Of a DNA stretch of 64,000 nt, positions 5,684 to 27,546 are shown in pieces (within the stretch, counting starts at the first letter, position 1; every line of letters starts with the position of its first letter). Location of the stretch: the NCBI GenBank assembly GCA_965242585.1, contig OZ251460.1, positions 2,574,692 to 2,638,691 of the forward strand. The letters run 5' to 3'. Source of the DNA: Limisphaerales bacterium. Its GTDB lineage: Bacteria; Verrucomicrobiota; Verrucomicrobiia; Limisphaerales; AAA164-E04. The position numbers and the translations under genes were made by a program. Below the pieces are notes generated by a model, which was given only the letters and a program-made list of their open reading frames with translations, had not been told where the DNA came from and did no database searches.

Positions 5684-5842
5684 CGGGGCGCCCAGAATTG
5701 GGATTTTTTCTTCCGATGTCGAGAAACTTCGCTGCGGCGGGATTTGAGGCGAACCATGTTGACAAAACGCGGCAATTGCGGGATTTTCTTTCTTCCGGGA
5801 TGGGCGGCCAGAATGTTGCCAAAATCGTGAAAGGCGAGCGAA

Positions 5843-7339
5843 ATGTTGGACACGGAGAATCTTGACACTTCACAAAAAGCGTTTCAGTTGAATCTGGACA
5901 ACGCCGTTTACGGCACGCTTGTGGAAATCGGCGCGGGGCAAGAAGTCGCCCGCTGGTTCTTTCGCGTCGGCGGCGCTTCGGGCAGCATCGCAAAAACTAT
6001 GTCGGCCTACGACATGCAGTTCAGCGACGCCATTTACGGCTCCGCAGAACGTTATGTGAGCCGCCAGCGCCTTACCACAATGCTGAATCATGAGTTTAAT
6101 CTGTTGATGGAACGGCTCGACCAAAAACGAGGGGAGTCTTCCCGCTTCTTCGCCTTTGCCAACACCGTGGCGGCGAAGAGTTTTCGCCGAAGGTCGGACG
6201 CCCACGGCTGGATGGGCGTGCAATTTCAACACCAACCGCGGGCGAAGCCTTCGCAGGTTATTATTCACGCCCGGCTGTTGGACCCCGAAAACTTTCAACA
6301 GCAGGACGCCCTTGGTTTGGCCGGCGTGAATTTGATTTACGGCGCCGCAAAACTCTTCTCTCGTCCCGACGCCTTGATCCGCTCTCTGCTGGACGGCCTG
6401 ACGCGCAAACGCATCGAGATTGACATGATAAAAATGACGGGTCCGGCCTTTCCGGGAATCGACAACCGTCTAATGGCGCTCAAACTCGTCCAATTGGGCC
6501 TTACCCAAGCCGCTATGTTCACCGCCGGCGGCGAAGTGGTGCAACCGGCCGAAGTCCTCTACAAAAGGCCCATCCTGCTGGAGCGCGGCTCCTTCCGTCC
6601 GCCTTCCAAAATGCACCTCGACATGCTGGAATGCGGCAAGGAACGCTTCCGAAAGGAGCCGGGAAACACCGGAGAAGAGCCGATTGTTCTCTTCGAAATG
6701 AACATGAAGGACGCGGTGACGTTCGCGCTGGAACAAGTCGCCAAAATCCAAGAAGACCGCCTGCCGGACGAATCCTCCACCAGCTTGGACTCGCAAGACT
6801 TTTTGGAGCGCGCCGACATCCTGTCCACGCTCGGCCATCCCGTCTTGATTTCCAACTACTTCCGATACTATCGGCTGGCCGGCTACCTCTTCCGCTACAC
6901 CGACAAAATGGTGGGGCTCGTTCTCGGCCTGCCCAACCTCCAAGAACTGTTTGAAGAAAAATACTATGCCGATCTCTCCGGCGGCATTCTTGAATCCTTC
7001 GGGCGAATGTTCAAAAACGACTTGAAGATTTACGCCTATCCCACCCGAAGTCCGGCCGGCGAAATCCTCACCGCCGAAAATCTCCAAGTAGCGCCCCACC
7101 TGCGGCACCTCTACGCTCACCTCTACGAAAACAACCGCATCGAATGCCTGCGCAATTTCCAAGAAGCCTGCGTCGGAATCAGCCACCAGGAAGTTCACGA
7201 CGGCATCCGAAGAGACAACGGCGACTGGGAAAACGCCGTCCCGCCGGACATCGTCAAACAAATCAAAGCGCGAGGCGTTTTCGGGTTTCCCCAAAAAGAC
7301 CCCCCGACAACAGCCGAGAGCCTCGAAGAAAAGCGCTAA
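5843..7339 (+). CDS. Conserved hypothetical protein (function unknown)
   Basis: 498-aa ORF with protein-like composition. I recall the N-terminus MLDTENLDTSQKAFQLNLDNAVYGTLVEIGAGQEVARWFF from a widespread uncharacterised (often mis-annotated) family. I can name no catalytic motif. Confidence 0.6.
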   Translation: MLDTENLDTSQKAFQLNLDNAVYGTLVEIGAGQEVARWFFRVGGASGSIAKTMSAYDMQFSDAIYGSAERYVSRQRLTTMLNHEFNLLMERLDQKRGESSRFFAFANTVAAKSFRRRSDAHGWMGVQFQHQPRAKPSQVIIHARLLDPENFQQQDALGLAGVNLIYGAAKLFSRPDALIRSLLDGLTRKRIEIDMIKMTGPAFPGIDNRLMALKLVQLGLTQAAMFTAGGEVVQPAEVLYKRPILLERGSFRPPSKMHLDMLECGKERFRKEPGNTGEEPIVLFEMNMKDAVTFALEQVAKIQEDRLPDESSTSLDSQDFLERADILSTLGHPVLISNYFRYYRLAGYLFRYTDKMVGLVLGLPNLQELFEEKYYADLSGGILESFGRMFKNDLKIYAYPTRSPAGEILTAENLQVAPHLRHLYAHLYENNRIECLRNFQEACVGISHQEVHDGIRRDNGDWENAVPPDIVKQIKARGVFGFPQKDPPTTAESLEEKR

Positions 7340-7717
7340 TGCCGCTTATGGAAACAAGGCCGACGAAACTGCCTCCACCGGTGGCGAATTTGTTTCCCCG
7401 TCGCAAAATCGTTGACGCGGCAAACAAGCTGCGCTTGGGACACTTCCTTGCCCTCTTTCGCAAAATTTCCGTGAATTTAATTCCTCTCCGCTTCCCTGAA
7501 GATCAATGGCGCAGTCAAAATACCGTCCAACAGCGGAGTGGTCGGCGAGAATATTGCGTCGAATTTTGCGGCTCGATTTGAACAACCAGCACCAGAATCC
7601 GGCCTTTAGCCGGGCAAATTGCCGCCGCGCCTCTGTTCCGACAATTTCGGCACTCTCCGCATCGTTGCACTTTTGGTTTGTCGGAAGCAACGGTTGTGGG
7701 CAATCTTTCTCCCTTTT

Positions 7718-9040
7718 ATGAGGCGATTGAACGTGGCCATCCTTGGAGGCGGAACAGTCGGCGGCGGCGTGTTTCGGGCGCTTCGCCGCAATGGATCCCT
7801 TCTCGCCGCTCGGATCGGCGTCCGCCTTCGGGTCAATCACGTCGTCGTCCGTCATCCGCGTAAACAGCGCTCGATTCGGTTTCCCGACCGCCTAATTGGC
7901 ACCGATTGGGAAGCGGCCGTCCGCGATCCCAACACCGACGTCGTCGTCGAACTGATTGGAGGCACCTCCGTTGCCAAGTCCGTTGTGGAAACCGCCCTCA
8001 GCCTCGGCAAGCCCGTCGTCACCGCCAACAAAGCCCTGCTGTCCGAACACGGAGAATCCCTCTTCACAATGGCGGCGTCCAACAGCGCCGGACTTTACTA
8101 TGAAGCCAGCGTCGCCGGCGGCATTCCAATCATCAAAGTGCTGCGAGAAAGTTTGGCAGGCAATCGTTTCCGCCGGATTTACGGCATCCTCAACGGAACT
8201 TGCAACTACATCCTCACCCAAATGGAGGAAGCCGGAGGCGATTTTGCCGCCGTTTTGGCCGAAGCCAAAAAAAAAGGCTATGCCGAGTCCGACGCCTCTC
8301 TGGATGTGGACGGTTTGGACGCCATGCACAAAGCGGGCCTTCTTGCCTCGCTCGCCCACGGTTTTTGGGTGCGCCCCAAATGGATTCACGTGGAAGGCAT
8401 TCGGCAAATTTCTCGGCTAGATATCGAGTTCGCCGCCCGGCTCGGCTACAAAATCAAACTTTTGGCCTCCGTCTGCTCGCTTTCCTCCCCCCTACGTTCG
8501 GCCGATTGCCCTCAAATTCAAGTGTCCGTCGGCCCCGCGCTTATCCCTTGCTCCCACGTGCTGTCCAGCGTCCGCGGCGTCTTCAACGCTGTCTTCGTCC
8601 ACGGCGACGTGGCTGGCGAAACCCTTTACTATGGACGGGGCGCCGGACAAGACGCTACCGCCAGCGCCGTCTTGAGCGACATTGCCGCCGCCTCGTTGGA
8701 CTACGGGAGCCATTCTCCCCTCCGCTTCCCGGCCTTTTCCTTTCACGCTTCGGAAGGGCAGGTCATTCCGTGGGAAGAATCCGTCAGCGAATACTACCTC
8801 CGCCTCACCGTTGTGGACCAACCCGGCACCATGGCTCAAATTTCCAACGTGCTTGCTTGTCGAAACATTGGAATCTCCTCCATCGTCCAGCCGGAAGGAC
8901 ACGAAGGCGCCTCCGTACCCTTGATCCTCATGATTCACGACGCCGCTGCAGGCGAAATGCTCCAAGCGCTGGAAGAAATTCGCCGCTTAAGCGTCGTCAA
9001 ATCCCCTCCAAAAATGATTCGCGCCGAACACTTTCGCTGA
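7718..9040 (+). CDS. hom: Homoserine dehydrogenase
   Basis: NAD-binding loop MRRLNVAILGGGTVGGGV, a homoserine dehydrogenase catalytic core and a C-terminal ACT-like domain. I moved the start from the track's 7619 to ATG 7718, because the extra 33 aa are not homologous-looking. Confidence 0.9.
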   Translation: MRRLNVAILGGGTVGGGVFRALRRNGSLLAARIGVRLRVNHVVVRHPRKQRSIRFPDRLIGTDWEAAVRDPNTDVVVELIGGTSVAKSVVETALSLGKPVVTANKALLSEHGESLFTMAASNSAGLYYEASVAGGIPIIKVLRESLAGNRFRRIYGILNGTCNYILTQMEEAGGDFAAVLAEAKKKGYAESDASLDVDGLDAMHKAGLLASLAHGFWVRPKWIHVEGIRQISRLDIEFAARLGYKIKLLASVCSLSSPLRSADCPQIQVSVGPALIPCSHVLSSVRGVFNAVFVHGDVAGETLYYGRGAGQDATASAVLSDIAAASLDYGSHSPLRFPAFSFHASEGQVIPWEESVSEYYLRLTVVDQPGTMAQISNVLACRNIGISSIVQPEGHEGASVPLILMIHDAAAGEMLQALEEIRRLSVVKSPPKMIRAEHFR

Positions 9041-9042
9041 CA

Positions 9043-10128
9043 ATGCCCGCTTCCCCACTCCATGCGCCCTCCCGCTGGCAAGGCGTCATTCAGCGCTACG
9101 CCGAATTCCTGCCGGTTTCGGATTCCACGCCGATCGTCTCCTTGTGCGAAGGCAACACTCCCTTAATTCCGGCGGACAACTTTGCGGAAGCTGTCGGCGC
9201 CAAGTGCAAACTCTACCTCAAATACGAAGGACTGAACCCCACTGCCTCGTTCAAAGACCGAGGCATGACCGTGGCCATCAGCAAAGCCTGCGAAAAAGGC
9301 GCCCAAGCCGTCGTCTGCGCCAGCACCGGCAACACCTCCGCTTCCGCCGCCGCCTACGCCGCCCGCGCCAAACTCAAGTGCGTCGTCGTCCTGCCGCACG
9401 GCAACATCGCTATGGGCAAACTCTCCCAAGCCCTCATCTACGGCGCCCAAACCATCGCCGTCGCCGGCAACTTCGACGCCGCCCTGCGCCTCGTCCGTGA
9501 ACTCGCCTCCATCGCTCCCGTCGAAATCGTCAACAGCGTCAACCCCGTCCGCATCCAAGGCCAAAAAACCGCCGCCTTCGAAATCTGCGACCAACTCGGC
9601 AGAGCGCCAGACTTCCACCTCCTGCCCGTCGGCAACGCCGGCAACATCACCGCCTACTGGCAAGGCTTCCAAGAATACTTCCGCCACCGCCGCACAAAGC
9701 AAAAACCCCAAATGTGCGGCTTCCAAGCTGCCGGCGCCGCCCCCATCGTAGACGGTCGTCCCATCGAAAAACCCAAAACCGTCGCCTCCGCCATCCAAAT
9801 CGGCAACCCCGCCAGCTGGAACGGAGCCATCCAAGCCTCCCAAGAATCCGGCGGCCTCATCGCCAAAGTCACCGACAACGAAATCCTCCACGCCTACCGA
9901 AAAATCGCCCAAACCGACGGCGTCTTCGTCGAACCAGCCTGCGCCGCCCCCCTAGCCGGCTTCATCCAAAACATCCGCAACGGCCGCATCCCCGAAGGCA
10001 GCCTTGTCACCGCTACCATGACCGGACACGGACTCAAAGACCCCGACTGCGCCCTCGCCGCCTCCGGCAAAGAACCAGAACTCGTTCAACCCAACTCCGC
10101 CGCCCTCATCAAAGCCCTCGGCATGTAG
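9043..10128 (+). CDS. thrC: Threonine synthase
   Basis: PLP-lysine motif NPTASFKDRGM and the CEGNTPLIP motif. The true start is ATG 9043 (MPASPLHAPSRWQ), 2 nt after the hom stop. The track ORF 8200..10128 is an upstream read-through of a stop-poor frame. Confidence 0.9.
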   Translation: MPASPLHAPSRWQGVIQRYAEFLPVSDSTPIVSLCEGNTPLIPADNFAEAVGAKCKLYLKYEGLNPTASFKDRGMTVAISKACEKGAQAVVCASTGNTSASAAAYAARAKLKCVVVLPHGNIAMGKLSQALIYGAQTIAVAGNFDAALRLVRELASIAPVEIVNSVNPVRIQGQKTAAFEICDQLGRAPDFHLLPVGNAGNITAYWQGFQEYFRHRRTKQKPQMCGFQAAGAAPIVDGRPIEKPKTVASAIQIGNPASWNGAIQASQESGGLIAKVTDNEILHAYRKIAQTDGVFVEPACAAPLAGFIQNIRNGRIPEGSLVTATMTGHGLKDPDCALAASGKEPELVQPNSAALIKALGM

Positions 10129-10160
10129 CCGACAAACCCGTTTCCCCCGCCTCCGCAACA

Positions 10161-11384
10161 ATGGCCCTCATCGTTCAAAAATACGGCGGCACCTCCGTCG
10201 CCAACGCCGAACGCATTAAAAACGTCGCCCGCCGCGTCGCCGAATGCCGCCGCCAAGGCGACCAAGTCATCGTCGTCGTCTCCGCCATGAGCGGCGTCAC
10301 CGACCGCCTCATCCGCCTCGCCAAAAGCGTCTGCGCTCCTCTGCAACAACCCCCGGAACGCGAAATGGACATGTTGCTCACCACCGGCGAACAAACCGCC
10401 ATCGCCCTCACCGCCATCGCCCTCCAAGCCTTAAACATCTCCGCCGTCTCTCTCACCGGCGCCCAAGCCGGCATCCAAACCGACGGCGTCCACACCAAAG
10501 CCCGAATCCAAAACATCACTCCCAAACAAGTCCACCAACTCCTCGACGCCGGCCACGTTGTCATCATCGCCGGCTTCCAAGGACAAACCCAAGACGGACG
10601 CCTCACCACGCTCGGACGCGGCGGCTCCGACCTCACCGCCATCGCCATCGCTGCCGCCGTCCGCGCCGACCTCTGCCAAATCTACACCGACGTCGACGGC
10701 GTCTACACCGCCGACCCCCGCATCCTCCCCCAAGCCAAAAAACTCCAAGAAATCTCCTACGACGAAATGCTTGAACTTTCCAGCGCAGGCGCCAAAGTCA
10801 TGCAAAGCCGATCCGTTGAATTCGCCAAGAAATTCCGAGTCCCCTTTGAAATCCGATCCAGCCTCAACCATAACCCCGGAACCATCGTGAAAGAAGAAAC
10901 CGCCAACATGGAACACGTCGTCGTCCGAGGCATCTCCCTCGACAAAAACCAAGCCAAAATTACCCTCCTCGGCGTCCCCGACCGACCCGGCGTCGCCGCC
11001 CAAATCTTCCAAGCCCTTCACCAATCCGCCGTCAACGTCGACATGATCGTCCAAAACGTCGGCCACGGACCCAAACCAACCACCGACCTCTCCTTCACCA
11101 TCGACCGCGCCGACCTACCCCAAACCCAAACCCTCATCCACTCCCTCGCCCCCAAAATCGGCTTTACCCAAGCCCTTCACCAAAAAGAAATCGGCAAACT
11201 CTCCATCGTCGGCGTCGGCATGAAAAGCCACTCCGGCATCGCCGCCAAACTCTTCCAAGCCCTCGCCGAGCAAAACGTCAACATCGACATGATCTCCACC
11301 AGCGAAATCAAACTCTCCGTCGTCGTTGCCCTCTCCCAAAGCGAAACCGCCCTTAGCGCCGCCCACAACGCCTTCCTCCGCTAA
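10161..11384 (+). CDS. lysC: Aspartate kinase (two C-terminal ACT domains)
   Basis: MALIVQKYGGTSVANAERI (KFGGTS-type motif), the amino-acid kinase core and tandem ACT domains. The start is set at ATG 10161. Confidence 0.9.
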   Translation: MALIVQKYGGTSVANAERIKNVARRVAECRRQGDQVIVVVSAMSGVTDRLIRLAKSVCAPLQQPPEREMDMLLTTGEQTAIALTAIALQALNISAVSLTGAQAGIQTDGVHTKARIQNITPKQVHQLLDAGHVVIIAGFQGQTQDGRLTTLGRGGSDLTAIAIAAAVRADLCQIYTDVDGVYTADPRILPQAKKLQEISYDEMLELSSAGAKVMQSRSVEFAKKFRVPFEIRSSLNHNPGTIVKEETANMEHVVVRGISLDKNQAKITLLGVPDRPGVAAQIFQALHQSAVNVDMIVQNVGHGPKPTTDLSFTIDRADLPQTQTLIHSLAPKIGFTQALHQKEIGKLSIVGVGMKSHSGIAAKLFQALAEQNVNIDMISTSEIKLSVVVALSQSETALSAAHNAFLR

Positions 11385-12112
11385 AACCCAAAACCCTACG
11401 GAAATTCTAACAAGAGCAAACACCCCGCGCCCGCAACTCCCTCAATGCCCGCGAAATCAAGGACTCCAGCCCCTCCTCGTTCTCCTTCTGCGCCGGAAGT
11501 TCCCAAGCCGATCGTCGGCTTCCAGAAGTTCCTTCCAAGATTCCCGTTCGATGCATTACTACCTCCAGAAACAATCAGGATTTTTGCCCGCCGCGGGGTC
11601 ATTCACAGCCGCTCACTTTTCAATCAGATCACTAAACCATCCAATCAAAAAACAAAAATCCCCAAAAAAGATTGGAAACTTTAGCCGTTTCGAATTCTCC
11701 GTTACCTACGGAATCTTTTTCAAACCCGTCGAAGTTTCCACGGCCGATTCGTGCGCCAGAATCTCCCTCAATGAGCTTTGTTCTCGATCGTTGCCGTGAT
11801 CATCGACTAAGTCTTTTGCTTTTCGACATCCTTACTTTTGCCCCTCCAAATATCGTATTGAACGTCAATATGGCGAAGTTGAAAATCGGAAACACGATTG
11901 AAAAGAAAAATCAGTCCGAATTGGAACTCGGAAATCATCCAAAGCATTAGCCGCAGTGGAATTTTGCGCTAGTTTTCCTTTTCGTAAGCCGGGTGGAATG
12001 GTCAACCCAAAACTCACCCAATCGGCCAGATTGATTCTCAAAAACAGCGCCAGAGAGAGAAATACCAGCAACAAGCCGAAAAAACCGTTCTTGACCAGCA
12101 ACCGCTGCCGGC

Positions 12113-12170: not shown

Positions 12171-12905
12171 CTATTCGACCTCTATTTCTTTGGCTAGAGC
12201 ATCTTTCAAAAGACGAAGTTCCTCATCAGAATACACCGTTGAGGCACTCATTCGCTCCCTCGTCTCTTGCATTTTCCACCTCGCAATGACCATCGACTCG
12301 GTGCTTTGCTTCAATGCAATCTTTCGCAAATCCGAAATCTCGCCTTTGCTTTTGGCTTCTTTCAGAGCTTTTGCGTATTCCTTTTCCACCGCATCTTCAA
12401 ACGCCTTCTTTTGCGTCGGATTTAAAGACGCCTTGAACTCGTTCTCTCTCTGGAAGTGCTCGGCGAGAATTTGCCTATCACTCGCATTTGCATGCTCCAT
12501 AATCCAAGCCTGATACTCTCGATCATTCATGGATTCCAGATTGACCGCCAGATCGTCTGATTGAGAATCAACGGAAGGTTTCGGGTCAATCGTCGTCGGA
12601 TCCTCTTCCGTTCGGATTCTAAACCTACGCACCGAAGATTCCAAAATGCCCAAACGCTTCTCAATTCCACGAATCTTTTCTGTTCGGATTTTTTCGGCTG
12701 ATTCCATCGTTGCCCGATACTGCGCCCGCATCTTGACATTTTCCTTAGCTTCCGCATTGGAACGCTGAAAAATGATAGTCCAAAAGATAGCGGAAAACAC
12801 CATTACGCCAAAAACGATCCAATACGTTACCGTCTTGTAGTTCACTTTCACTGCTTTTTCCTTTCTTTTTAAGTGGTTAATCTCGATGTAACGTAATCCC
12901 AGCAC
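12171..12905 (-). CDS. Hypothetical membrane-anchored coiled-coil protein
   Basis: 244 aa. One N-terminal TM helix (YWIVFGVMVFSAIFWTIIF), then a charged coiled-coil region and an acidic linker. It is the last gene before the terminator. Confidence 0.6.
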   Translation of the reverse strand: MLGLRYIEINHLKRKEKAVKVNYKTVTYWIVFGVMVFSAIFWTIIFQRSNAEAKENVKMRAQYRATMESAEKIRTEKIRGIEKRLGILESSVRRFRIRTEEDPTTIDPKPSVDSQSDDLAVNLESMNDREYQAWIMEHANASDRQILAEHFQRENEFKASLNPTQKKAFEDAVEKEYAKALKEAKSKGEISDLRKIALKQSTESMVIARWKMQETRERMSASTVYSDEELRLLKDALAKEIEVE

Positions 12906-13693
12906 TTTTGGTACTCAGCCTCAATGTCGGCAAGAATCCCCAATGTTGAAGAGCCGCAAACTCTTCTTGACGGTCGCATTTTGCGTTAATCAAATTGCTC
13001 CTGAGTTGGTGTTCCGTCCACGCTAATTCATCCTCTCTATCCGCATCCTCTTTCGCATCCTTCTTGACTTTTTCAAGTGTCGAGTAGATTGCGGCCAAAG
13101 CAACGGAATGCTTTGTAAGGCAAAGAGTCTGCGCCGTCCAAAAAGCGGGGCCGGTAAATGTTGCAATTGCCAATTCGCAGGCGACAAGCTGGGCTTGCGC
13201 TGCGGCAACGGCCAAAGCGGCTTTTTTTCGTCGCCGCATCCACTCTATCGGCATAAGTATGGCGATTTTGAGTCTGAATTGCGGTGTAGATTTCTCCAGA
13301 TCGTTCGAGCAAATTGAACCGACGATCCATGATTTTCTGCGTGGCTTTGCGGTAGCGTTCATCTTCTTCCCATTCCTGCTGGTCGCGAATGTCGTTGCAT
13401 TCTTGCCAAGTCGACGGAAGAGTCACGCAACACGGGAGGCGGCAATTCTCGGAAAGATGAAGAACATACGGATGTTCTTGCGCCCATGTCGGTGGCGCGT
13501 AATTGATTGTGATGGCCAAGACCGCCAACGAAACGATGACTCCGGCCAATCCGAGAGTCGTCGTCTGCTTTTCTATGTTTGTAGACTTCATAACTTTAGA
13601 TTTGTTTGTTTTGGCGACGCCCATCACAAGAACGCCAGCTGTTGAAAGAACAATCCACCAAAACTCTCGATTTGTCCAGGACTTTTTTTGCAA
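12877..13693 (-). pseudogene. Membrane protein gene split by a frameshift at an A7 run (two track ORFs, 13073..13693 and 12877..13362)
   Basis: The N-terminal part (2 TM helices, ...ERYRKATQKIMDRRFNLLERSGEIYTAIQTQNRHTYADRVDAATKK) is in one frame. The protein-like continuation (KKAALAVAAAQAQLVACELAIATFTGPAFW...) is in another. The two meet at T7 13222-13228. Confidence 0.45.
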
Positions 13694-19277: not shown

Positions 19278-19749
19278 CTTCCTCCTCCCCCTTGCAAGAC
19301 GCACAATAGATAGGCTTTCGTCAAAAAGAAAGACACTGCTCTTTCCCTTACCCAAAACCATAATCTACCGCTCTTCACTCCCCTTTTTTGGGGGGATATT
19401 ATAGAGTTTGCGGATGTGCAGGGGGTGATTTGCTCGCTGGTTTCTCTTCTCGTCAGGGGGTGTTGTTGTTGGTTTATGGGCTGGGTTGTTGCTGCTTGTC
19501 GTCGTGCATCCAAAAGCGCTTGCTGAAACGGGGGAGGGATTTTCTGTCGGGGGGTGGAACCTTCTGGCGGTTTTGGGGTATTGAAGCGAGCGCACTCTGC
19601 GCCATCAGAGCGGGTGAGCCGGCCGAGTTTTGGAGCCGTTCCCGTCCCGCAAGCCATTGCGAACCCAATCTGAGCCAACCCTGTTGGTCGCGGCTTGCGG
19701 CCTTCGGCTTCTTTTTCCATTCACTGAGGAAGAAGTGACTGGCGGCGGC

Positions 19750-22700
19750 AGAGGGCAAAGCGTCTTGGGCTTGGTTGGGGTTGGGTGGTGGGGGTTTTCC
19801 GCAGAGCCGGCAGCGCCGCTTCTTCTTCTTCGCCGTGGAACTGCCTAGCCAAAGCTACTCGCGCCGTGAATGCGCTCGGTTCCCCCTCGCGAACTTCCCC
19901 AACGCTTTGCCCTTCCCGCCGTCGTTCTCTTCTATGACACAGACGGCCTGCTCACGCTGGCTTTGGTTCATCGCCACCCCAACCAGCGCAAGCCTAAGCG
20001 CAATGTCCTAAGCCACCGCGTTTCCTTGATCCGCGAACTCCATCCGCTCCGCCTTCACCGCGCCCATCGGGACATCTTGGCCGGCTTGTCGTTGGCTGTC
20101 CGCGCCCCATGGATGAGCGCCCATTGCCAGCCGGCCGACTTTGATGCCTTAGACACGCAGGAACTCAAACCAGCGCTTCTATCGCCAGCTCTTGGCGAGG
20201 TTGGAGCGCGCCGGCGAGCAAGCCAAGCGCCCCACAACCAGCGCCCCGCAGAGCATCTCCTCCGCTTGATTGTCCGCCTGCTCTTCCTCTGGTTGCTCCA
20301 AGAAAAGAACCTCGCCGCCGAGAACTTGTTTATATAGAAAGCCAAGTGGCCGAACTTCTCACAAACTACGACCGCATGGCCGGCGCTCTGACTATTGCGC
20401 CGGGTGGCAAAACCTGTTCTTCGCCCCCTTGAACCCCAAAACAACCAGCGCAACTTCCATCTATGGCGCTACCAGAGCCAAAGAGCCAACCCGAAACAAC
20501 TTCTCCAACTCTTCAACCAAACCTCCTTCATTACCGGCGGCCTCTTCTTTGACTGCTTAGACCAACAATCCCAATCAGTGCCAACACTACTCCCTTCCCA
20601 AGCGCCTCTTCTTTGGCCACAACCCCGCCCAGCCGGGAATCCTCAATCTCATAGACCGCTATCAATTCACCATCGAAGAAACCACGCCCCTCAAGCAGGA
20701 AGTCGCCCTCGACCTCAAACTGCTGAGCCAAGTCTTTGAAAACTTATTCGCCGCCTACAACCCCGAAACTCGCTCAACCGCCCGCCAACCAACCGGCTCT
20801 TGCTACACTCCCCCGCGAAGTAGTGGACTACATGGCGGAAGAAGCGCTCGCAGAAAAAGCCAAGCCCGCCGATCCTTCCGGGAGCGCATCGGCTCCCTGC
20901 CAGACTACACCGACGCGGGCAACAACGCCTTTCCTATGGCCGTCCTGCACAAACTTACCTTAGCCTTGCACCGTTTTGACCCAGACAACCAACTTTGACC
21001 CAGCTGGCAACAACTCCAAGAAATCAGGGTCACCTTTCAACGCATCAACACTCTGACTACGGACGCAAACTCTACCTCCTCCAAAACAACACTCACGGCG
21101 GCGCCCTTCCATCCATCGCCGGCCACCTCGCCAACCTGCGCTTCTTTATCTCCTCAGCCATCGAGCAACAACCCAACCCCAACCCCCAAGAGAACTTCGG
21201 CCGCCAACCTCTGCCCAACCTAGAAACCCGCTTCCTTAGCGCCAACGCCTTGCTGTCCCTAGCCCCACCCCAACAACTCGCCCTAGCGGAAACCAAACTT
21301 GTCCGGGAACTCTAGAAGCAACTAAGTGCCAACCGCGAACAACACCTTCCACGCCTTCCAATCGTCAGGAGAAACGGGACTATCGAAACAAAGACAAAGA
21401 ACTCAGAGAAGAACTCGCCCAAAAACTGCAAACCGCCGGCTTTGATGCCGCTTCTGTCCAAAAGATCGCTGATTGGGATCCCTACGACTCCAACGCCCAC
21501 GACCCCTGGTTCGCCCCCCATTACAGGTTCGGCATCCAACATGGCTTTGACCTAGTAATCACCAACCCGCCTTACATCCAACCGCAAAAGAACAAGAGCC
21601 AACTCGCCCAAAAAACTGCAAACCGCCGGCAACCAAACCTTCATCCGCCCCGGCGACCTCTACTAACTCTTCTACGAACGCGCCGCCCACCTCCTCTCCC
21701 TCATTCCCTCCTCTGCCTCCTCTCTCTTCTAATAAGTGGTTGCGTTCCGGTTGCGGCGAGAAAACGCGCGCTTATTTGGCCTCAAAAACGAACCCAAAAC
21801 TATTATTAGACTTTGGCGGCTTTCCAGTGTTTGAAAACGCTTCGGCGGCCCCCAATATCTTGTTGGTTCGCCGAGGCAAAAGCGCCGCCGTCCGCAAGGC
21901 AGTAGATATGGATCGCCTGCCCGACAAAACCTCCCCGCCCGAAGAAAGTCTATGGAGGCCCTTCCCTCCGCAGGCAGACAAGCCGTGGTTCATCCTCTCC
22001 TCCATCGAACAATCCATCATGCACAAAATGGAATCCATCGGAACCCCATTGAAAGAATGGAATGTAAAAATTAACTTTGGCATTAAAACAAGCTACAACG
22101 AAGCCTTTGTTATTGATAATGAAACTAAAAAGAGATTGGCTGCCACAGACCCGAAATCCGCCGAAATCGTCAAGCCCATGTTGCGCGGCCGAGACATCCG
22201 CCGCTACCAAGCCAACTGGGCCAAGTTATGGCTGATTGACATCCACAACGGATGCGACGCCATTCCCGCTGTTGATATAGACGACTACCCAGCGGTCAAA
22301 AACTAGTTGGACAAATTCTATCCGCAACTGGAAAAACGACAAGACCAAGGCAACCCCCCCTACCACCAAGACTTTGAAAAAGAAAAGATAGTTTGGATTA
22401 CATTGGCCGAAAATGGACGTTTTTCCTACGATGACGGAGGAATATACTGCGAAGCTACTGCATTTATGATGACTGAGAACAGTATCAAATACCTATACGC
22501 CTTGCTGAACTCGAAACTAACTTGCTGGTTTCTTCGGCAAAATTCACCGCAACTGGATACAGAGGCCTTGCGTTGGAAAAAGGTTTATGTAGAAACCATC
22601 CCTATCCCAAAAATCCCCGCCGCCGAACAACTTCCCTTCATCCGCCTAGTCGATTGCATCCTGCAAGCCAAAGCCGCTAACCCTGAAGCAGATGTTAACG

Positions 22701-22786
22701 ATTGGGAAAAAGAACTCGACCACCTCGTTTATTCCCCTTACTGCTTGACAGAATCTGAAATCTCCGCCATAGAAGGAGGCAAATGA
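19750..22786 (+). pseudogene. Decayed type IIG / Eco57I-PglX-like N6-adenine DNA methyltransferase gene (5' boundary approximate)
   Basis: Family motifs are scattered over several frames: ALPAVVLFYDTDG, LLRLIVRLLFLWLLQEKNL, ILNLIDRYQFTIEETTPLKQEVALDLKLLSQVFENLFAAYNPETRSTARQ, TPREVVDYMAEEAL, LRFFISSAIEQ..PLPNLETRFLSANALL, DWDPYDSNAHDPWFAPHYRFGIQHGFDLVITNPPYIQ (motif IV), GDLY*LFYERAAHLL and SNKWLRSGCGEKTRAYL. There is an in-frame TAG at 22304-22306 (VKN*LDKFYPQLEKR). Confidence 0.75.
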
Positions 22787-23808
22787 AGCAACATACTAAA
22801 GAAAAGTTGATGATATACAGAGAATATCTGAAAAATTATCTCTACGTGATGTGCAACGCCAAACAGTATTCCCGCATTTTCGTTTGGGAACCGTTTGCAG
22901 GTGGTGGTTTGGATGAGAGCAACGAAGCAGGAAGCGCATTGATAGCGGCGGCAATAATAGACGGATTTAGGAAGAACTATCGAGAAACGGATATTCGATT
23001 GTTCTTAAATGAGTTAGATAACACAAGATACCAAAGTCTAAAGAGAGCGACCAGCAAGCATCGAAGTTTTGTGCGTGTCTATAACTGGGAAGCAGAGGAA
23101 TTTTTGTCTCAAGTTCATTCAGAGTTGAAGAAAATTTCACACAATCGCAATCTTCATAATTTATTTTTTATTGATCCTTATGGGTACACTCAATATTCAC
23201 GGAAAAATTTGGATCAGTTATTTGGCCTCAAAAACAGCGATTACTTGTTATTCATACCGACTTATCATATTTACAGGTTTAGTAAGAAAGAGATCAGTCA
23301 AGCCTATCGATTCGTCTCAGATTTGGGCATTAATTCCAAACAATGCAATGGGCTAGATTCTCTTGCCGAAAAATTGAAGGATAAATTAAAGCAGAAAGCG
23401 CAGACGAAATTTGGTTACCAATATAGACTGGAAAATAAAGAGGCGTCTCATAGTATATTTCACTTATTCTTTGTTACCAAACACATAAAGGGAGCAGAGA
23501 AATTTCTGGAAGCAAAAAATAAAGTAAAAGAGAAAATAGAAAGATCAAATAATCAATTAAGTTTTCTCGATCCAATGAAAAGCGAAATAGAAAGTAAGTT
23601 GCGAAAAATTCTTTTCAAAGAAATAACTAACTATAAATTATTTGAAGAAATCATCAAAATGGGTTATTTGTCAAAGGAAGTTAAACCCATTCTGAAGAAA
23701 TGGGAGGATGAAGGAGAATTGAGAATAAGAGCTGAATTTAAAAGAAAGAAAGGTTCTTATTATTTGACGGATAGCGAAAAAACCGTCTTTATCAAGGTGA
23801 AGAAGTGA
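22783..23808 (+). CDS. tcmP: Three-Cys-motif partner protein TcmP family
   Basis: 341 aa. HTKEKLMIYREYLKNYL, VWEPFAGGG and FFIDPYGY match my recollection of TIGR04474. The start ATG overlaps the upstream stop (ATGA). The gene is AT-rich (roughly high-30s % GC by eye). Confidence 0.65.
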   Translation: MKQHTKEKLMIYREYLKNYLYVMCNAKQYSRIFVWEPFAGGGLDESNEAGSALIAAAIIDGFRKNYRETDIRLFLNELDNTRYQSLKRATSKHRSFVRVYNWEAEEFLSQVHSELKKISHNRNLHNLFFIDPYGYTQYSRKNLDQLFGLKNSDYLLFIPTYHIYRFSKKEISQAYRFVSDLGINSKQCNGLDSLAEKLKDKLKQKAQTKFGYQYRLENKEASHSIFHLFFVTKHIKGAEKFLEAKNKVKEKIERSNNQLSFLDPMKSEIESKLRKILFKEITNYKLFEEIIKMGYLSKEVKPILKKWEDEGELRIRAEFKRKKGSYYLTDSEKTVFIKVKK

Positions 23809-24503
23809 GCAAGATTGAATGGACGGGGGTGACTTGGAATCCGGTGACGGGTTGTTCGAAGGTGAGCGAGGGCTGTCGGCATTGTTATGCGCATCGGCTG
23901 GCGTTGCGGCTTCGGGCGATGGGGAACCGACGATATGCCAACGGTTTTCAAGTGACGTTGCATGAAGATTTGGTGGATGCGCCGTTTCGATGGCGTTCGC
24001 CTCGCGTGGTGTTTGTGAACTCGATGAGCGATTTGTTTCATCAAAAAGTCCCAATTCATTTTCTTCGGCAAGTTTTCTCGACGATGAACAAATGCCGGCA
24101 ACATACTTTCCAAATACTCACAAAACGAAGCGGGCGGTTGCGACGGTTGGCTGGCAAGTTGGAGTGGTCGAAGAATATCTGGATGGGAGTGAGTGTGGAA
24201 AATGAGAGCGTATATCATCGCATTGAGGATCTGCGCCAAGTTCCCGCTAAGGTGCGGTTTTTGTCGTGCGAACCGTTGATTGGTCCGATGGAAAAATTGC
24301 CGCTGGAGGACATTCATTGGGTGATTGTTGGGGGTGAATCAGGACCAGGAGCAAGGCCGATGGAAGCGGATTGGGTGCGCTCCATTCGGGATCAGTGTGG
24401 GAAGTCCGGCGTTGCGTTCTTTTTCAAGCAGTGGGGCGGGGTTTGCAAGCATCAACACGGTCGCATATTGGACAATTGCACTTACGATGAAATGCCGGTG
24501 TAA
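23805..24503 (+). CDS. Phage Gp37/Gp68 family protein (DUF5131, PF07505) with three-Cys motif
   Basis: MSKIEWTGVTWNPVTGCSKVSEGCRHCYA (Cys17-x6-Cys24-x2-Cys27), FVNSMSDLFH, WVIVGGESGPGARP and FFFKQWGG are hallmark blocks of the family. The GTG start overlaps the tcmP stop (GTGA). Confidence 0.8.
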   Translation: MSKIEWTGVTWNPVTGCSKVSEGCRHCYAHRLALRLRAMGNRRYANGFQVTLHEDLVDAPFRWRSPRVVFVNSMSDLFHQKVPIHFLRQVFSTMNKCRQHTFQILTKRSGRLRRLAGKLEWSKNIWMGVSVENESVYHRIEDLRQVPAKVRFLSCEPLIGPMEKLPLEDIHWVIVGGESGPGARPMEADWVRSIRDQCGKSGVAFFFKQWGGVCKHQHGRILDNCTYDEMPV

Positions 24504-24556
24504 AGCGTAAATAATATAATAAAGATTGTATGAAGGAAGGGGAGCAGATTTTTCTT

Positions 24557-25555
24557 TTAGTGGAGTTGTTGGAGCCAGTGTTGGATTTTTTGGGAGACTT
24601 CGTTGGTGGAGTTGTTGAGGAGGCAGTGGGGTTGGGGGAAGCAGCAGTAGTCAAAGCAGGGTTTGTGGGGGCAGGGTTTGCCTTCGATGTAGGCGGCTTG
24701 AGGATGGTTGGGGAGGAACCATTGGGGGCGTTGGGGACCGAAGATGGTGAAGGTGGGGATGCCGAGAGCGGCGGCGAGATGGCCGGGTCCGGAGTCGTTG
24801 CCGATGAAGGCGGTTGCGTTTTTCAAGCGGCGGATGAGTTCGGCGAGGTTGACGGGGCAATGGACGGAGTGGTTGAGGGATTTCCATTCTTTTCGTTGGT
24901 TGGGATCGCAGAGGATTTGGGTTGTCCAGCCTATGCGTTGGAGACGGGCGGAGAGTTGGGCGTAGCGGGGAATTGGCCAGATGCGGACTGGTTGGGCGGC
25001 GCCGGAGTGAAGGATGGCGAGGCGTTGGGAAGATTGGCCGAGTAGGGAATGCGAAGGACGGTGGATGGAAAGACCGAGGGCGTGGCCAAGTGCTTCCCAT
25101 TGGGCGGCGCGGTTGGCGTTGGGATGGACTTGGGAGAGGGGTTCGGTGAGGAGGAGTTGGCTACCCAAGCGGGGAAAGCCGATGCGGCGGGGCGCGCCGG
25201 AAAGCCGAAGAACGAGGTGATCGCGGGGATCGCGGCGGGCGGAGACGGCGATGTGCGGTTTTTGTTGGCGGATTTGCCGCAGGGTTGCTTGGAGGGTTGG
25301 CCAAGGCCAGCGGCGCAGTTGGTATTTGCCGGTGAATTGAGTCCAAGGGGCGATGACGGGGAGGATGGTGATTTGGGGCCAAAGTTCTTTGGCGAGTTCG
25401 GCGGCGTGGGGTTTGGCGAGCAGGATGACGCGAAAATGGCGGCTGGCGGTTTGGAGGAAGGCGGAGCCGATGGCCAGATCGCCAATGCCCCAAAATTCGG
25501 TGACGAGGAGTGTTTTCACGGGGCGGGTTTTTGGGCGATTAGGTAGGCGGACCAA
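24557..25555 (-). CDS. Glycosyltransferase family 9 (heptosyltransferase-like)
   Basis: 332 aa. GNDSGPGHLAAALGIPTFTIFGP is the GT9 C-terminal signature. Confidence 0.8.
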   Translation of the reverse strand: MVRLPNRPKTRPVKTLLVTEFWGIGDLAIGSAFLQTASRHFRVILLAKPHAAELAKELWPQITILPVIAPWTQFTGKYQLRRWPWPTLQATLRQIRQQKPHIAVSARRDPRDHLVLRLSGAPRRIGFPRLGSQLLLTEPLSQVHPNANRAAQWEALGHALGLSIHRPSHSLLGQSSQRLAILHSGAAQPVRIWPIPRYAQLSARLQRIGWTTQILCDPNQRKEWKSLNHSVHCPVNLAELIRRLKNATAFIGNDSGPGHLAAALGIPTFTIFGPQRPQWFLPNHPQAAYIEGKPCPHKPCFDYCCFPQPHCLLNNSTNEVSQKIQHWLQQLH

Positions 25556-26175
25556 CCGATCCAGTGGATTTTGGCGGTGAATTTTTGGCGGCTGGCGGGT
25601 AGGAAGCGGTAGAATGGATAGGCAAGGGCAAAGAGCCAGTTTCTGGAGGTGCCGGAGCGAAGGATTTTGAGGCGGTTTTTTCGGGCGAGTTGGGCGAGGG
25701 CGCCTATGCTGACGATTTTGGTGTGAGTGAGGTCGTCAAAGAAGTTTAGGGTAAAGGAGCCGGAAGCGGGTCCGGCAAGGCTGGGAAGGGTGAGTGTTTT
25801 GGGATGAGGCGTTTCGAAGTAGGCTTGTCCGCCGTGTTTGAGGAGGCGGGCGATTTCGGAGATTAGGATCGTCAGGTTGTCCAGATGTTCGACCAAGTGC
25901 ATGCAGGTGACGGAGTCCATAGAATGGTTTTGCCAAGTCAGGGTTTCGGTGTTGAGGTTGGCTTGGCGGTATTGGCATCCGGGCGGATAGCGGTTTGGCT
26001 GTCCGGCGACGTCGACGGCGTAGAAGTGGAGGTCGGGGCGTAGTTCGTAGAAGTGGCGGAGGGTTTCGCCGTCGGAAGAGCCGAGGTCTAAAACATGGCC
26101 TCCTTGCGGCGTGGAGGACAGAAAGCGCGACCGGGTGTCCAGCCGAGGAAAGGCGCGGAGAAGTTTCCAGTTCAT
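25516..26175 (-). CDS. Class I SAM-dependent methyltransferase
   Basis: VLDLGSSDGE (motif I) and a Methyltransf_11-like core. The start is set at ATG 26175, which overlaps the stop of the upstream GT4 gene (ATGA). Confidence 0.75.
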   Translation of the reverse strand: MNWKLLRAFPRLDTRSRFLSSTPQGGHVLDLGSSDGETLRHFYELRPDLHFYAVDVAGQPNRYPPGCQYRQANLNTETLTWQNHSMDSVTCMHLVEHLDNLTILISEIARLLKHGGQAYFETPHPKTLTLPSLAGPASGSFTLNFFDDLTHTKIVSIGALAQLARKNRLKILRSGTSRNWLFALAYPFYRFLPASRQKFTAKIHWIGWSAYLIAQKPAP

Positions 26176-27386
26176 GCTCCGGCGGGTTTTTGGGGCTCGT
26201 TTTGGGCGGGGAAGGCGCTCGTGGAAGAAGCGGAGCGGCTTTGGGGGCGCATTCGAGAGGGCAAAGACAAATCTCGATAGATTTTTTGGTAAGATTGAAA
26301 AATCTGCGAGGCGCAGCGATGTCTCACCGAGTCGCGAATGCTTGCGGGCGGTTGGAATTCGTCTGGCGCGAAGATCGCTTTTTCGAGGCATTGTTTCAAG
26401 GATTGCGGGTCGTCCGGCCGGAAGAGCAGTCCGCAACCCGGTTTTACAATGTCCGGGCCGCCGCCGCTGTCAGAAACGATAGCGGGCAGACCCAGCGCCA
26501 GCGCTTCCATTAAAGCGACCGAACAAGGTTCGTTGACGGAGGGAAGCACAAACAAGTCGCTTTGCCGGAGTTCGGCGGCGACGTCAACGGACGAGCCGCA
26601 AAGGCGCACTTGGTCGTCCAGTCCGCATTGGCGAATCTTCTGGCGAAGCGCGGCGGCAAAGGTGCGGGATTCTGGGAGTTGGAGTGTCGGACCCCAGATG
26701 TTGCATTGGATTTTCTTTTGCAAGGCTTCGGGCAAACGGCGGATGGCTTCGGCCAAGAGGTCCCATTTTTTCCATCCGATGAGGCTGCCGACTCCAATAA
26801 GCCGGAGAGAGCGATTGGGGGAGCGGAAGCCTTGCCGTTCTTCGACCATGGGACGCTGCAAGAATTCGTCTCCGAAGCAGGCGGAAATGGTGTGGATTCG
26901 GCTGTTTGGTGCGGTGAGGCCGTAGTGTTTTGCCATGTTGGGAGTGAGGAGCGTTGTGTGCAGTCGTTTGCGATTGGCGGCCCAGCGATACAGGCCGGTT
27001 TGGCGGGCGTAGTTGTGATTGGTAAAAAGCGCGGGCCGCTTGGTGTGCCAAGAAAACAGCATGGCAACCGGCAAGGCGCCGCGGGAGTGGGCGTGAATCA
27101 CGTCGTAGTGTTCCGTTTGAAGCAGGGCCAGCAATTCGCGGGTTGCGGGGATTGCTTGTCCAATCAGGCGAAGGCGGTTGTCGGCTTCTGCTTGCGCGGA
27201 GCGGCTGTAGCGGTATTCGAGCGCGGGTTGGCGGGTCTCTTTGTAGGCTTGGTTGACCCATACAACGTGCCTCCAGCCATCTCCGGCGCTGGCGTTCTGC
27301 AAGTTGCGGATGACGGTCAGGACGCCGCCGGCATCTTCACGCTCGCCCGTCAAGTGCAGAATCTTCAAGGGATGTTGGTTCGCCAT
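26172..27386 (-). CDS. Glycosyltransferase family 4 (GT-B)
   Basis: VLPSVNEPCSVALMEALALGLPAIVSDSGGGPDIV is the EX7E-type GT4 motif. The start is set at ATG 27386 (MANQHPLKILHLTGE). Confidence 0.8.
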   Translation of the reverse strand: MANQHPLKILHLTGEREDAGGVLTVIRNLQNASAGDGWRHVVWVNQAYKETRQPALEYRYSRSAQAEADNRLRLIGQAIPATRELLALLQTEHYDVIHAHSRGALPVAMLFSWHTKRPALFTNHNYARQTGLYRWAANRKRLHTTLLTPNMAKHYGLTAPNSRIHTISACFGDEFLQRPMVEERQGFRSPNRSLRLIGVGSLIGWKKWDLLAEAIRRLPEALQKKIQCNIWGPTLQLPESRTFAAALRQKIRQCGLDDQVRLCGSSVDVAAELRQSDLFVLPSVNEPCSVALMEALALGLPAIVSDSGGGPDIVKPGCGLLFRPDDPQSLKQCLEKAIFAPDEFQPPASIRDSVRHRCASQIFQSYQKIYRDLSLPSRMRPQSRSASSTSAFPAQNEPQKPAGA

Positions 27387-27546
27387 AAGTGGACTGGTTT
27401 CGCTGTAATCTTCGCAAGCATAGTAAGCTGTCGACTCCGTTCCCGGCAAGCCGTTCCTTTGGCCGAAGTTTTTTTCCATTGGCAAAACTCCTTGCCGCCG
27501 TTAGAAAAAGAGGCGACAATTTAAATCCACTTTTATCGACAAATTC

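Follow-up and report, generated by a model that had tools for sequence, protein, structure and literature searches.

The question raised by the locus studied here is why a pair of genes should stay intact directly behind a dead restriction–modification (RM) gene, and what the products of this pair may do. The locus lies in a stretch of 64,000 nucleotides from a Limisphaerales bacterium (GenBank assembly GCA_965242585.1, contig OZ251460.1, positions 2,574,692 to 2,638,691), which was analysed as a whole and is called the window below. In it, a type IIG RM pseudogene is followed on the same strand by tcmP, which encodes a three-Cys-motif partner protein, and by a gene of the DUF5131 (phage Gp37/Gp68) family; the coordinates are collected in Table 1. 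We suggest, at a probability of roughly 0.4, that the two genes encode a self-contained two-protein module which would depend on S-adenosylmethionine (SAM), act on nucleic acid, most likely DNA, and have a role in the conflict with phages and mobile elements. The pair rides in RM and defence islands independently of the neighbouring type IIG enzyme, and it is a member of a known pair family that probably represents a DNA-directed two-enzyme module.

The three genes are joined by the start/stop overlaps to which the first-pass annotation of this DNA had pointed: the TGA of the upstream frame overlaps the ATG of tcmP as ATGA at 22783-22786, and the TGA of tcmP overlaps the GTG of the DUF5131 gene by 4 nt as GTGA at 23805-23808. 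The same two overlaps occur in the orthologous locus L251 (loci of relatives are given by such numbers) and in L252, where the three-gene arrangement is intact, which bears out the view that the type IIG gene, tcmP and the DUF5131 gene were built as one coupled operon. An intact type IIG gene stands directly 5' of tcmP in L021, L034 and L082 as well. The public gene call for TcmP (P0001, 332 amino acids) begins at Met10 and drops nine residues (22783-22809), including H4 and K8. Because H4 and K8 are conserved and the junction in L251 is the same, the start at 22783 is favoured, and the P0001 start is probably mis-called.

The type IIG gene of the window is a pseudogene, as had been supposed: it carries at least seven in-frame stops and three frame changes. 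In stop-to-stop translation, the relic keeps recognisable helical and N6-methyltransferase blocks, an NPPY motif IV (~21590-21620) and a target-recognition domain, in differing frames; two C-terminal fragments match the PADLOC model REase_MTase_IIG (1.7e-40 and 1.5e-32), and Pfam TaqI_C is matched at 2.4e-12. A tblastn search with the intact homologue from L021 (1143 amino acids) aligned its residues ~186-1143 to 20230-22783 in frames 1, 2, 1 and 2. The N-terminal ~185 residues are undetectable, and no continuous frame is left for one protein that would combine the nuclease, N6-methyltransferase and target-recognition domains. Among the relatives, the orthologue is open for at least 554 codons in L251 and at least 387 codons in L252, is reduced to fragments in L084, and is represented in L253 only by its last ~85 nt. 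The ratio of nonsynonymous to synonymous substitution rates (dN/dS) of the relic against the intact gene of L251 is uninformative, since the synonymous divergence (dS) of the target-recognition domain is saturated (1.34) and the ratio mixes the functional period with the time after inactivation.

The pair has a different fate. L251 is 77-81% identical to the window across the type IIG gene, tcmP, the DUF5131 gene and the flank, and L084 and L085 are 86-93% identical to it from the start of the DUF5131 gene over 6-9 kb downstream. Regardless of what has become of the type IIG gene, the open reading frames (ORFs) of the pair are intact in the window, in L251 and in L253/L254. For DUF5131, dN/dS amounts to 0.09-0.14, which is tighter than in the neighbouring genes (0.10-0.35), and for TcmP to 0.25-0.31. 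These values stay low irrespective of whether the type IIG gene is complete, dead, in fragments or lost. Both genes are thus under purifying selection, which supports the proposal of the first-pass annotation that the pair has a selectable activity of its own.

The occupant of the partner slot varies among the relatives. The slot between the type IIG relic and the DUF5131 gene is occupied by a long TcmP in the window, L251 and L253. In L085 (605-1534) it holds a short TcmP, whose best BLAST E-value to the window TcmP is 0.11 (not significant) and which matches the profile hidden Markov model (HMM) of TcmP. In L084 (8987-9964) the slot holds a DUF3644 HEPN gene, and there is no adjacent TcmP. 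DUF3644 HEPN is a validated defence domain that is often found within RM operons (PMC3710099; 10.1101/2024.01.29.577857). The conspicuous AT-richness of tcmP is real (GC 0.347, against 0.522 for the DUF5131 gene and 0.538 for the whole window), while its explanation by recent horizontal acquisition into this genome has to be rejected: the tcmP of L251 has a GC content of 0.345, and the alternative slot genes are AT-rich too (0.38-0.41; 0.35-0.41 for all three alternatives). The low GC therefore belongs to the partner gene itself, and this gene is exchanged as a cassette. The DUF5131 gene in turn is separated from L085 by a dS of 0.39, against 0.07-0.16 in the flank (identity ~0.90 versus 0.95-0.98 downstream), and in the AT-rich spacer behind it identity to the relatives falls to 0.43-0.52, with a break at 24512-24540. 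With DUF5131 further removed from its L085 counterpart than the flanking DNA is, and with the spacer as breakpoint, the module thus has a history separate from its surroundings.

Some further observations concern the same segment. In L253, the sequence left of tcmP (705-1815) matches window positions 12497-13544 and not 13.7-22.7 kb, and ~9 kb of the window, including the stretch with DUF1559, SDR and the type IIG relic, are absent or rearranged there; the left flank of L084 differs too. The DUF1559 gene is of the prepilin type and might hint at the Planctomycetota-Verrucomicrobiota group. An exact 18-nt direct repeat (TTATTTGGCCTCAAAAAC) occurs at 21772-21789 in the type IIG relic and at 23218-23235 in tcmP, in different frames (0/100 shuffles match), and may be a recombination footprint or microhomology. 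Three patches, 7619-11384 (+), 19870-22300 (+) and 24557-27485 (-), have a strongly C-rich, G-poor sense strand with a GC skew of -0.3 to -0.5; besides the type IIG relic, they take in undamaged genes for glycosyltransferases and methyltransferases, and the proteins encoded by these contain much P, Q, H and L. The tcmP and DUF5131 genes are purine-rich, which is the opposite bias.

The pairing of the two genes is near-obligate. A DUF5131 gene adjoins tcmP in all 81 TcmP-anchored loci with room for it (80 directly downstream, one upstream), and of 78 loci the majority have a junction between -4 and +9 nt, the values -4 and +2 leading with 13 loci each. Viewed from the other side, a TcmP-family gene adjoins DUF5131 in 64 of the 70 determinable DUF5131-anchored metagenome loci, and on viral contigs it stands beside DUF5131 in 45/80, in several orientations. 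Conservation of the partners is unequal: across the TcmP-anchored loci DUF5131 is 43-73% identical versus 22-55% for TcmP. The best 120 database matches of DUF5131, out of at least 8000, are 67-93% identical to it; for TcmP homologues, identity is 20-77%, and the TcmP profile search returned 6350 representatives at the 50% identity level.

Phages carry the genes as well, DUF5131 being present in 178 of 50,697 cultured phage genomes. In the Gordonia phage PantheRoc, the pair has the integrase on one side and the immunity repressor on the other; its TcmP is of the short form and converges on DUF5131. Mycobacterium phage Sbash (gp69, L250:3989-4966) and Burkholderia phage phi1026b (L249:3989-4960) have a solo DUF5131 gene for a protein of ~325 amino acids, with no TcmP detectable nearby; the solo proteins have insertions after residues ~127 and 259 (Sbash) and ~181 and 256 (phi1026b), and the neighbours of the Sbash gene include those for RecT, RusA and DnaQ. 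A second dedicated class of DUF5131 partners was considered and rejected: where the gene directly upstream is not tcmP, it is an ordinary one (MaoC, PALP, HlyD, STAND-like ATPase), except for the DUF3644 HEPN gene of L084. Tandem TcmP paralogues also occur: in L065 the gene directly 5' of TcmP (8414-9331) is a TIGR04474 member (E 7e-37), giving the order TcmP-TcmP-DUF5131, and the cluster of this paralogue is found at position -1 in three further loci, the Prevotella loci L055 and L065 included.

Both family calls of the first-pass annotation are over their thresholds. TcmP scores 121.8 bits against NCBIfam TIGR04474 (cutoff 53, profile positions 1-262 of 263) and matches the PADLOC model PDC-M30A (1.8e-53) and also M41A. 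Its AF2 model is of good quality (predicted local distance difference test, pLDDT, 89.7; predicted template modelling score, pTM, 0.86), and E. coli RlmJ, the 23S rRNA m6A2030 methyltransferase, accounts for each of the ten best Foldseek matches in the PDB (probability 1.00, best E 1.2e-7). Other class I SAM methyltransferases come next, and TYW4 and KsgA are also on the list; against viral structures, only generic class I methyltransferases were found. By this prediction, residues ~1-255 of TcmP adopt a class I SAM methyltransferase fold like that of RlmJ, and a winged helix follows at the C-terminus. The latter rests on the AF2 model, with helices and strands at 266-339 (pLDDT >90), and on a match to PF22560 GMT-wHTH, which at E 0.0013 and 19.6 bits stays under the cutoff of 27; several homologues carry precomputed matches to this family as well. 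Short-form TcmPs have no winged helix.

The FAGGG and DPYGY motifs named in the first-pass annotation are present. Among 48 homologues, G42, D131, P132, G134 and Y135 are invariant, as are K8 and Y15 of the N-terminal tail, where H4 is conserved in at least 90%; position 77 is Glu or Asp in the alignment rows displayed. The hhalign comparison of TcmP with RlmJ (E 0.002, probability 14%) brings three blocks into register, GSALIAA/GSPLIAR, LNELD/LTELHP and FFIDPY/LILIDPP (TcmP/RlmJ), so that S51, E77 and D131 of TcmP fall opposite S100, E118 and D164 of RlmJ. In RlmJ, S100 and D164 bind the amino-acid moiety of SAM and E118 the ribose; the enzyme cannot do without Y4, H6, K18 and D164, and its active site is similar to that of DNA m6A methyltransferases (PMC3814359). 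The H4/K8/Y15 tail lies outside the hhalign alignment; it recalls motif X of RlmJ. TcmP differs from RlmJ in its motif IV, DPYGY instead of DPPY, which keeps Asp and the first Pro, replaces the second Pro and has an aromatic residue after it (short TcmPs have DPF), in the lack of the inserted helical subdomain of RlmJ and in the extra winged helix. It is also mobile, highly divergent and always paired with a radical SAM enzyme. TcmP thus has the appearance of an RlmJ-type protein that binds SAM, with a variant motif IV. No Pfam or NCBIfam methyltransferase model matches it at E <= 0.01, and a PDB sequence search returned no sequence-level relative. Because of the missing HMM match and the weak hhalign result, we file TcmP only as RlmJ-like in fold and not as a member of the RlmJ family.

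The DUF5131 protein covers PF07505 completely (333.6 bits, threshold 28.9, profile positions 2-243 of 243) and matches PDC-M41B (3.2e-116), PDC-M30B (6.7e-112), phrog_2045 and Pfam GP88. A weak match to TIGR04471, "radical SAM mobile pair protein A", was obtained too; the B family that partners it is PA0069-like. The three cysteines C17, C24 and C27, in which the first-pass annotation saw a radical-SAM-like site, and the GGE motif are invariant in an alignment of 40 homologues. In radical SAM enzymes, the GGE motif binds the methionyl group of SAM, and the canonical cluster motif is CX3CX2C; the CX6CX2C spacing of DUF5131 is a variant of it. Pfam Radical_SAM (PF04055) does not match the protein at E <= 0.01. 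SFLD and RadicalSAM.org both have a curated DUF5131 subgroup of radical SAM enzymes, which in the latter forms Megacluster-5-2 adjoining spore photoproduct lyase in 5-3 (PMC9477430), and the cysteine triad fits this assignment and the invariant GGE motif. We describe the protein as a predicted minimal radical SAM enzyme, with a predicted [4Fe-4S] cluster at C17/C24/C27.

The AF2 model of DUF5131 (pLDDT 84.5) has alternating strands and helices. The best TM-scores in Foldseek were obtained with spore photoproduct lyase (TMq 0.47-0.53, probability 0.91-1.00). No other radical SAM enzyme occurs among these matches, the rest being generic TIM barrels. The structural comparison points to an RlmJ-like fold for TcmP and, weakly, to a resemblance of DUF5131 to spore photoproduct lyase. 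This likeness extends to the SplB/COG1533/PA0069/Rv2578c group, which shares the RadicalSAM.org megacluster (PMC9477430). The differences are considerable: DUF5131 has 232 amino acids versus 340, its cluster motif is CX6CX2C versus CX3CX2C, neither NCBIfam spore photoproduct lyase models at E <= 0.01 nor PDB sequences match it (in Pfam, only DUF5131 and GP88 do), and it needs, or at least keeps, the TcmP partner.

Table 1. Positions in the window of the gene pair, its predicted functional sites and adjoining features.
Feature	Position	Strand	Remarks
Promoter-like site TTCACT-17-TATTAT	19374..19402	+	Upstream of the type IIG relic; sole + strand sigma-70-like match before the pair
Type IIG restriction-modification pseudogene (Eco57I/TaqI_C type)	20230..22786	+	Recognisable blocks out of frame
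Shine-Dalgarno AAGGAGG for tcmP	22773..22779	+	Within 3' end of type IIG frame; from sequence
tcmP, long-form three-Cys-motif partner protein, 341 aa	22783..23808	+	ATG start, ORF intact
TcmP F38-A-G-G-G42, glycine-rich motif I-like loop	22894..22908	+	G42 invariant, G40 >=90%
TcmP G50-S51	22930-22935	+	G50 invariant, S51 >=90% conserved
TcmP D131-P-Y-G-Y135, opposite (N/D)PP(Y/F) motif IV	23173..23187	+	Invariance, RlmJ alignment
TcmP winged-helix domain, residues 266-316 (predicted)	23578..23730	+	Weak match to PF22560 GMT-wHTH, AF2 model
Shine-Dalgarno-like AAGGTGA for DUF5131 gene	23794..23800	+	Within 3' end of tcmP; from sequence
DUF5131 (phage Gp37/Gp68 family) gene, 232 aa, predicted radical SAM enzyme	23805..24503	+	GTG start, ORF intact
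DUF5131 C17-x6-C24-x2-C27, predicted [4Fe-4S] cluster site	23853..23885	+	All three Cys invariant, 40 homologues
DUF5131 G176-G177-E178, GGE motif	24330..24338	+	Invariant in the same alignment
AT-rich spacer before convergent GT9 gene	24504..24556	.	Right edge of module; identity to relatives falls

To see in which company the pair occurs, the neighbours within five genes were clustered and scanned in the 81 TcmP loci, 49 of which have full flanks. RM modules (HsdM/HsdS/HsdR, Eco57I-type IIG, MmeI, SNF2-PLD helicases) stand beside the pair in 21/81 loci, or 14/49 of those with full flanks, and in six of the seven closest relatives of the window TcmP (L001, L002, L004, L005, L007, L008); in L002, a DUF4145 gene lies between the RM genes and the pair. 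RM genes make up a fraction of a percent of all genes, so that by our own estimate they would be expected near the pair in 1-3% of loci. Because of this, the observed ~26% is a large excess, judged against that estimate and not against a matched genomic null. A published gene table places TcmP next to the defence gene Hna in S. meliloti (PMC12445080). The pair is thereby comparable with the accessory genes embedded in RM systems (DUF3644/HEC-08, DUF4145, PrrC), being likewise appended to type I or type IIG operons. The RM-embedded HEPN genes are single-gene RNase effectors, whereas the pair would be a two-enzyme SAM/radical SAM module without a nuclease domain.

The second recurrent context, found in 10/81 loci and never overlapping with the first, is represented by SOS-type operons. 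In eight Bacteroidota loci (L028, L029, L036, L040, L041, L042, L045, L056), a co-directional operon, spanning ~7000-11800 in each locus, consists of genes for a 2H phosphoesterase, a PA0069/SplB-like radical SAM protein (NF033668, 460 bits), TcmP and DUF5131, and diverges from an S24-UmuC pair, with gaps of 19-125 nt and a shared intergenic region of 8-139 nt; a member of the PA0069 family is thus co-operonic with the pair. COG1533 SplB and the operons of the error-prone polymerase are LexA-regulated in Bacteroidetes (PMC8565304), and the four-gene operon is probably SOS-regulated. Other arrangements with UmuC-like and DnaE2-like genes are present in L031 and L038. In L031, which has both TcmP and DUF5131, the DnaE2-like polymerase (4402-8433) is fused to a C-terminal 2H (2',5' RNA ligase-like) phosphoesterase. 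The neighbourhood survey thus revealed both RM and SOS associations of the pair, the enrichment being measured by our own yardstick.

The first-pass annotation regarded the pair as a candidate for an undescribed system, which it is not: PADLOC-DB v2 contains HMMs for exactly this pair, PDC-M30A/B and PDC-M41A/B. The window genes are the same entity, being adjacent, co-directional and matching M30A, M30B and M41B with the family thresholds passed; the window instance represents the long, winged-helix (M30-like) form, coupled to a dead type IIG gene. The pair is therefore an already known, computationally flagged entity, and the structural, context, selection and cassette comparisons are what is new here. 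The PDC entries are unpublished candidate defence systems (PMC11811056), so membership says nothing on function. In the open-access literature, PDC-M30 and PDC-M41 are mentioned only by survey papers and no test of either was found; TcmP appears only in gene tables, and nothing was found that combines RlmJ, radical SAM and restriction-modification. This agrees with the earlier statement that the pair has no demonstrated biochemistry, none having been found in these papers for TcmP or DUF5131. Taken as a whole, the first-pass interpretation proved right in the family calls, the coupling and the own activity of the pair, and wrong in its undescribed status and in reading low GC as acquisition.

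Our data directly support the family memberships, the predicted folds and conserved motifs, the pairing of the genes and the contexts in which they occur, the purifying selection on them and their lack of dependence on the type IIG enzyme; from here on, we infer a DNA substrate, the cooperation of the two proteins and their physiological role. A DNA-acting two-protein module is suggested by the folds, the near-obligate pairing, the DNA-centred contexts, the carriage by phages and prophages, and the combination of a conserved enzyme with a variable partner. TcmP would be the substrate-recognition subunit, equipped with the counterparts of the SAM ligands (S51, E77, D131), a catalytic tail (H4, K8, Y15) and a winged helix for DNA; it would bind DNA and hold a flipped-out base, probably adenine or modified adenine. 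DUF5131 would be the conserved catalytic subunit, a minimal enzyme resembling spore photoproduct lyase, in which the C17/C24/C27 cluster and GGE would cleave a second SAM molecule to yield a 5'-deoxyadenosyl radical, and this radical would abstract hydrogen from the base or sugar presented by TcmP. The outcome may be a covalent change to DNA, serving as a DNA mark or as processing of foreign DNA in the conflict with phages and mobile elements, and specificity would reside in TcmP, as the part that diversifies rapidly and can be exchanged. A role in conflict is favoured because of the coupling to RM genes, the diversity and exchange of TcmP, its replacement by a HEPN gene in L084 and the listing in PADLOC.

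Several points weigh against this interpretation. RlmJ itself is an rRNA enzyme, so a predicted fold of this type does not establish a DNA substrate. Motif IV of TcmP is DPYGY and not (N/D)PP(Y/F), and to this are added the missing methyltransferase HMM matches and the 14% probability of the hhalign comparison. DUF5131 matches the structures of spore photoproduct lyase weakly, at E 3e-3 to 4e-2. The winged helix cannot be essential, since the short-form TcmPs lack it. Because solo DUF5131 genes exist in phages and the DUF5131 gene of L084 is under purifying selection with no adjacent TcmP, the enzyme may not strictly need its partner. The SOS-operon context fits repair at least as well as defence, and the RM excess is set against our own 1-3%.

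The alternative that survives best is DNA repair, although we regard it as rather unlikely. TcmP would then recognise a lesion and flip the base, DUF5131 would be a lyase reversing the lesion by radical chemistry, and the presence of the pair in RM loci and prophages would reflect mobility or damage linked to restriction and modification. The eight Bacteroidota operons with their PA0069/SplB-like gene, divergent from S24-UmuC, speak for such a system, and so do the LexA regulation of COG1533 SplB and the error-prone polymerase operons, the arrangements of L031 and L038 and the position of the Sbash gene among those for RecT, RusA and DnaQ. Spore photoproduct lyase as the best structural relative of DUF5131 points in the same direction, and the extremely high conservation of this protein would be in keeping with a substrate that is universal. 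SOS linkage is nevertheless compatible with defence, because DNA-damage and anti-phage responses can share regulation (PMC12392091). A lesion-recognition subunit, moreover, would be expected to be conserved, whereas TcmP is highly divergent and swapped as a cassette; the RM context is twice as common as the SOS one, the window clade is coupled to RM genes, and PADLOC lists the pair as a defence candidate.

Defence could also be exerted through a small molecule. Viperins are radical SAM defence enzymes, and DUF5131 might, like the prokaryotic viperins, make a chain terminator or toxic nucleotide, with TcmP as a SAM- or nucleotide-binding regulator or sensor. The location in defence islands and the PADLOC listing would suit such an effector, as would a very highly conserved enzyme acting on a universal small substrate. 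We nevertheless consider this improbable: no viperin or other nucleotide-modifying radical SAM enzyme is among the structural matches, the nearest of which acts on DNA, TcmP has a nucleic-acid methyltransferase fold with a winged helix, and the SOS-operon context would be left unexplained.

Near-obligate pairing and tight translational coupling would also be understandable if DUF5131 were an activase that installs a protein radical or another post-translational modification on TcmP, which would then be the working enzyme. Glycyl-radical activases are small, as is DUF5131 with its 232 amino acids, and the DPYGY block of TcmP contains a Gly that is invariant. This is quite improbable, since solo DUF5131 genes exist in phages, the DUF5131 gene of L084 is selected without an adjacent TcmP, very divergent TcmP types, long and short, pair with nearly identical DUF5131 proteins, and the structural relative of DUF5131 is a DNA enzyme and not an activase.

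The closest solved structure to TcmP belongs to an rRNA m6A methyltransferase, and TYW4 and KsgA are among its other matches, which could suggest that the pair modifies rRNA or tRNA in the manner of RlmJ and the radical SAM RNA methylases and that the RM neighbourhood is incidental; the co-operonic 2H phosphoesterase of Bacteroidota, from a family of RNA-end enzymes, would be in line with this. Such a role is very improbable, however, in view of the patchy and mobile distribution that includes phages and prophages, the swapping of the partner as a cassette at one locus, and the recurrence of RM and SOS contexts rather than translation genes; besides, the active site of RlmJ is itself of the DNA m6A methyltransferase type (PMC3814359). 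Finally, that the pair is merely the part of a dead three-gene operon which is yet to be inactivated, as its dead type IIG neighbour might suggest, is hardly tenable, being contradicted by the dN/dS values of both genes, their intact ORFs in the window, L251 and L253/L254, and the two intact ribosome-binding sites.

As to the remaining features of the window, the promoter-like site upstream of the type IIG relic could be the promoter of the operon. The sigma-70-like scan gave 7 sites versus 4.0 +/- 2.6 expected, with a consensus that may not fit this host, and neither the promoter nor the terminator scan found anything over background. A search for island boundaries revealed no tRNAs, Rfam families or flanking repeats, and the flanks have no integrase. 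A replication origin at ~22.7 kb, where the GC skew changes its sign, was considered and rejected: the skew is patchy over the window and follows gene orientation. Downstream, the GT4 glycosyltransferase at 26175-27485 (-) scores 29.3 bits against PF20706, "GT4 in conflict systems" (threshold 26), and matches ordinary GT4 models too.

The window instance is ordinary for its family, and its value lies in the comparison of loci. It represents a natural experiment in which the pair is selected while the type IIG gene decays, with relatives in which that gene is intact, fragmented or deleted and two in which the slot holds another gene. Concrete predictions follow from this comparison: SAM binding via S51/E77/D131, a cluster at C17/C24/C27, a DNA substrate, and induction by damage in Bacteroidota. 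Perhaps the pair belongs to a new two-component class, in which a subunit with a methyltransferase fold selects and flips the base and a radical SAM subunit carries out either a novel DNA hypermodification or the oxygen-independent removal or repair of a base adduct, with specificity held in a cassette and with use both in phage conflict and in the SOS response. We put this forward as a doubtful proposal; if true, it would reveal a widespread mobile DNA-chemistry system serving both purposes.

The pair is very common, with 6350 TcmP representatives and at least 8000 DUF5131 matches, and no published function was found for it; DUF5131 is among the most conserved proteins of mobile DNA that are annotated without a function, with ~70% identity across phyla. 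If the pair does carry out radical chemistry on DNA, it would represent a new enzyme class for DNA modification or repair, and this would explain a recurrent passenger of RM islands, prophages and SOS operons.

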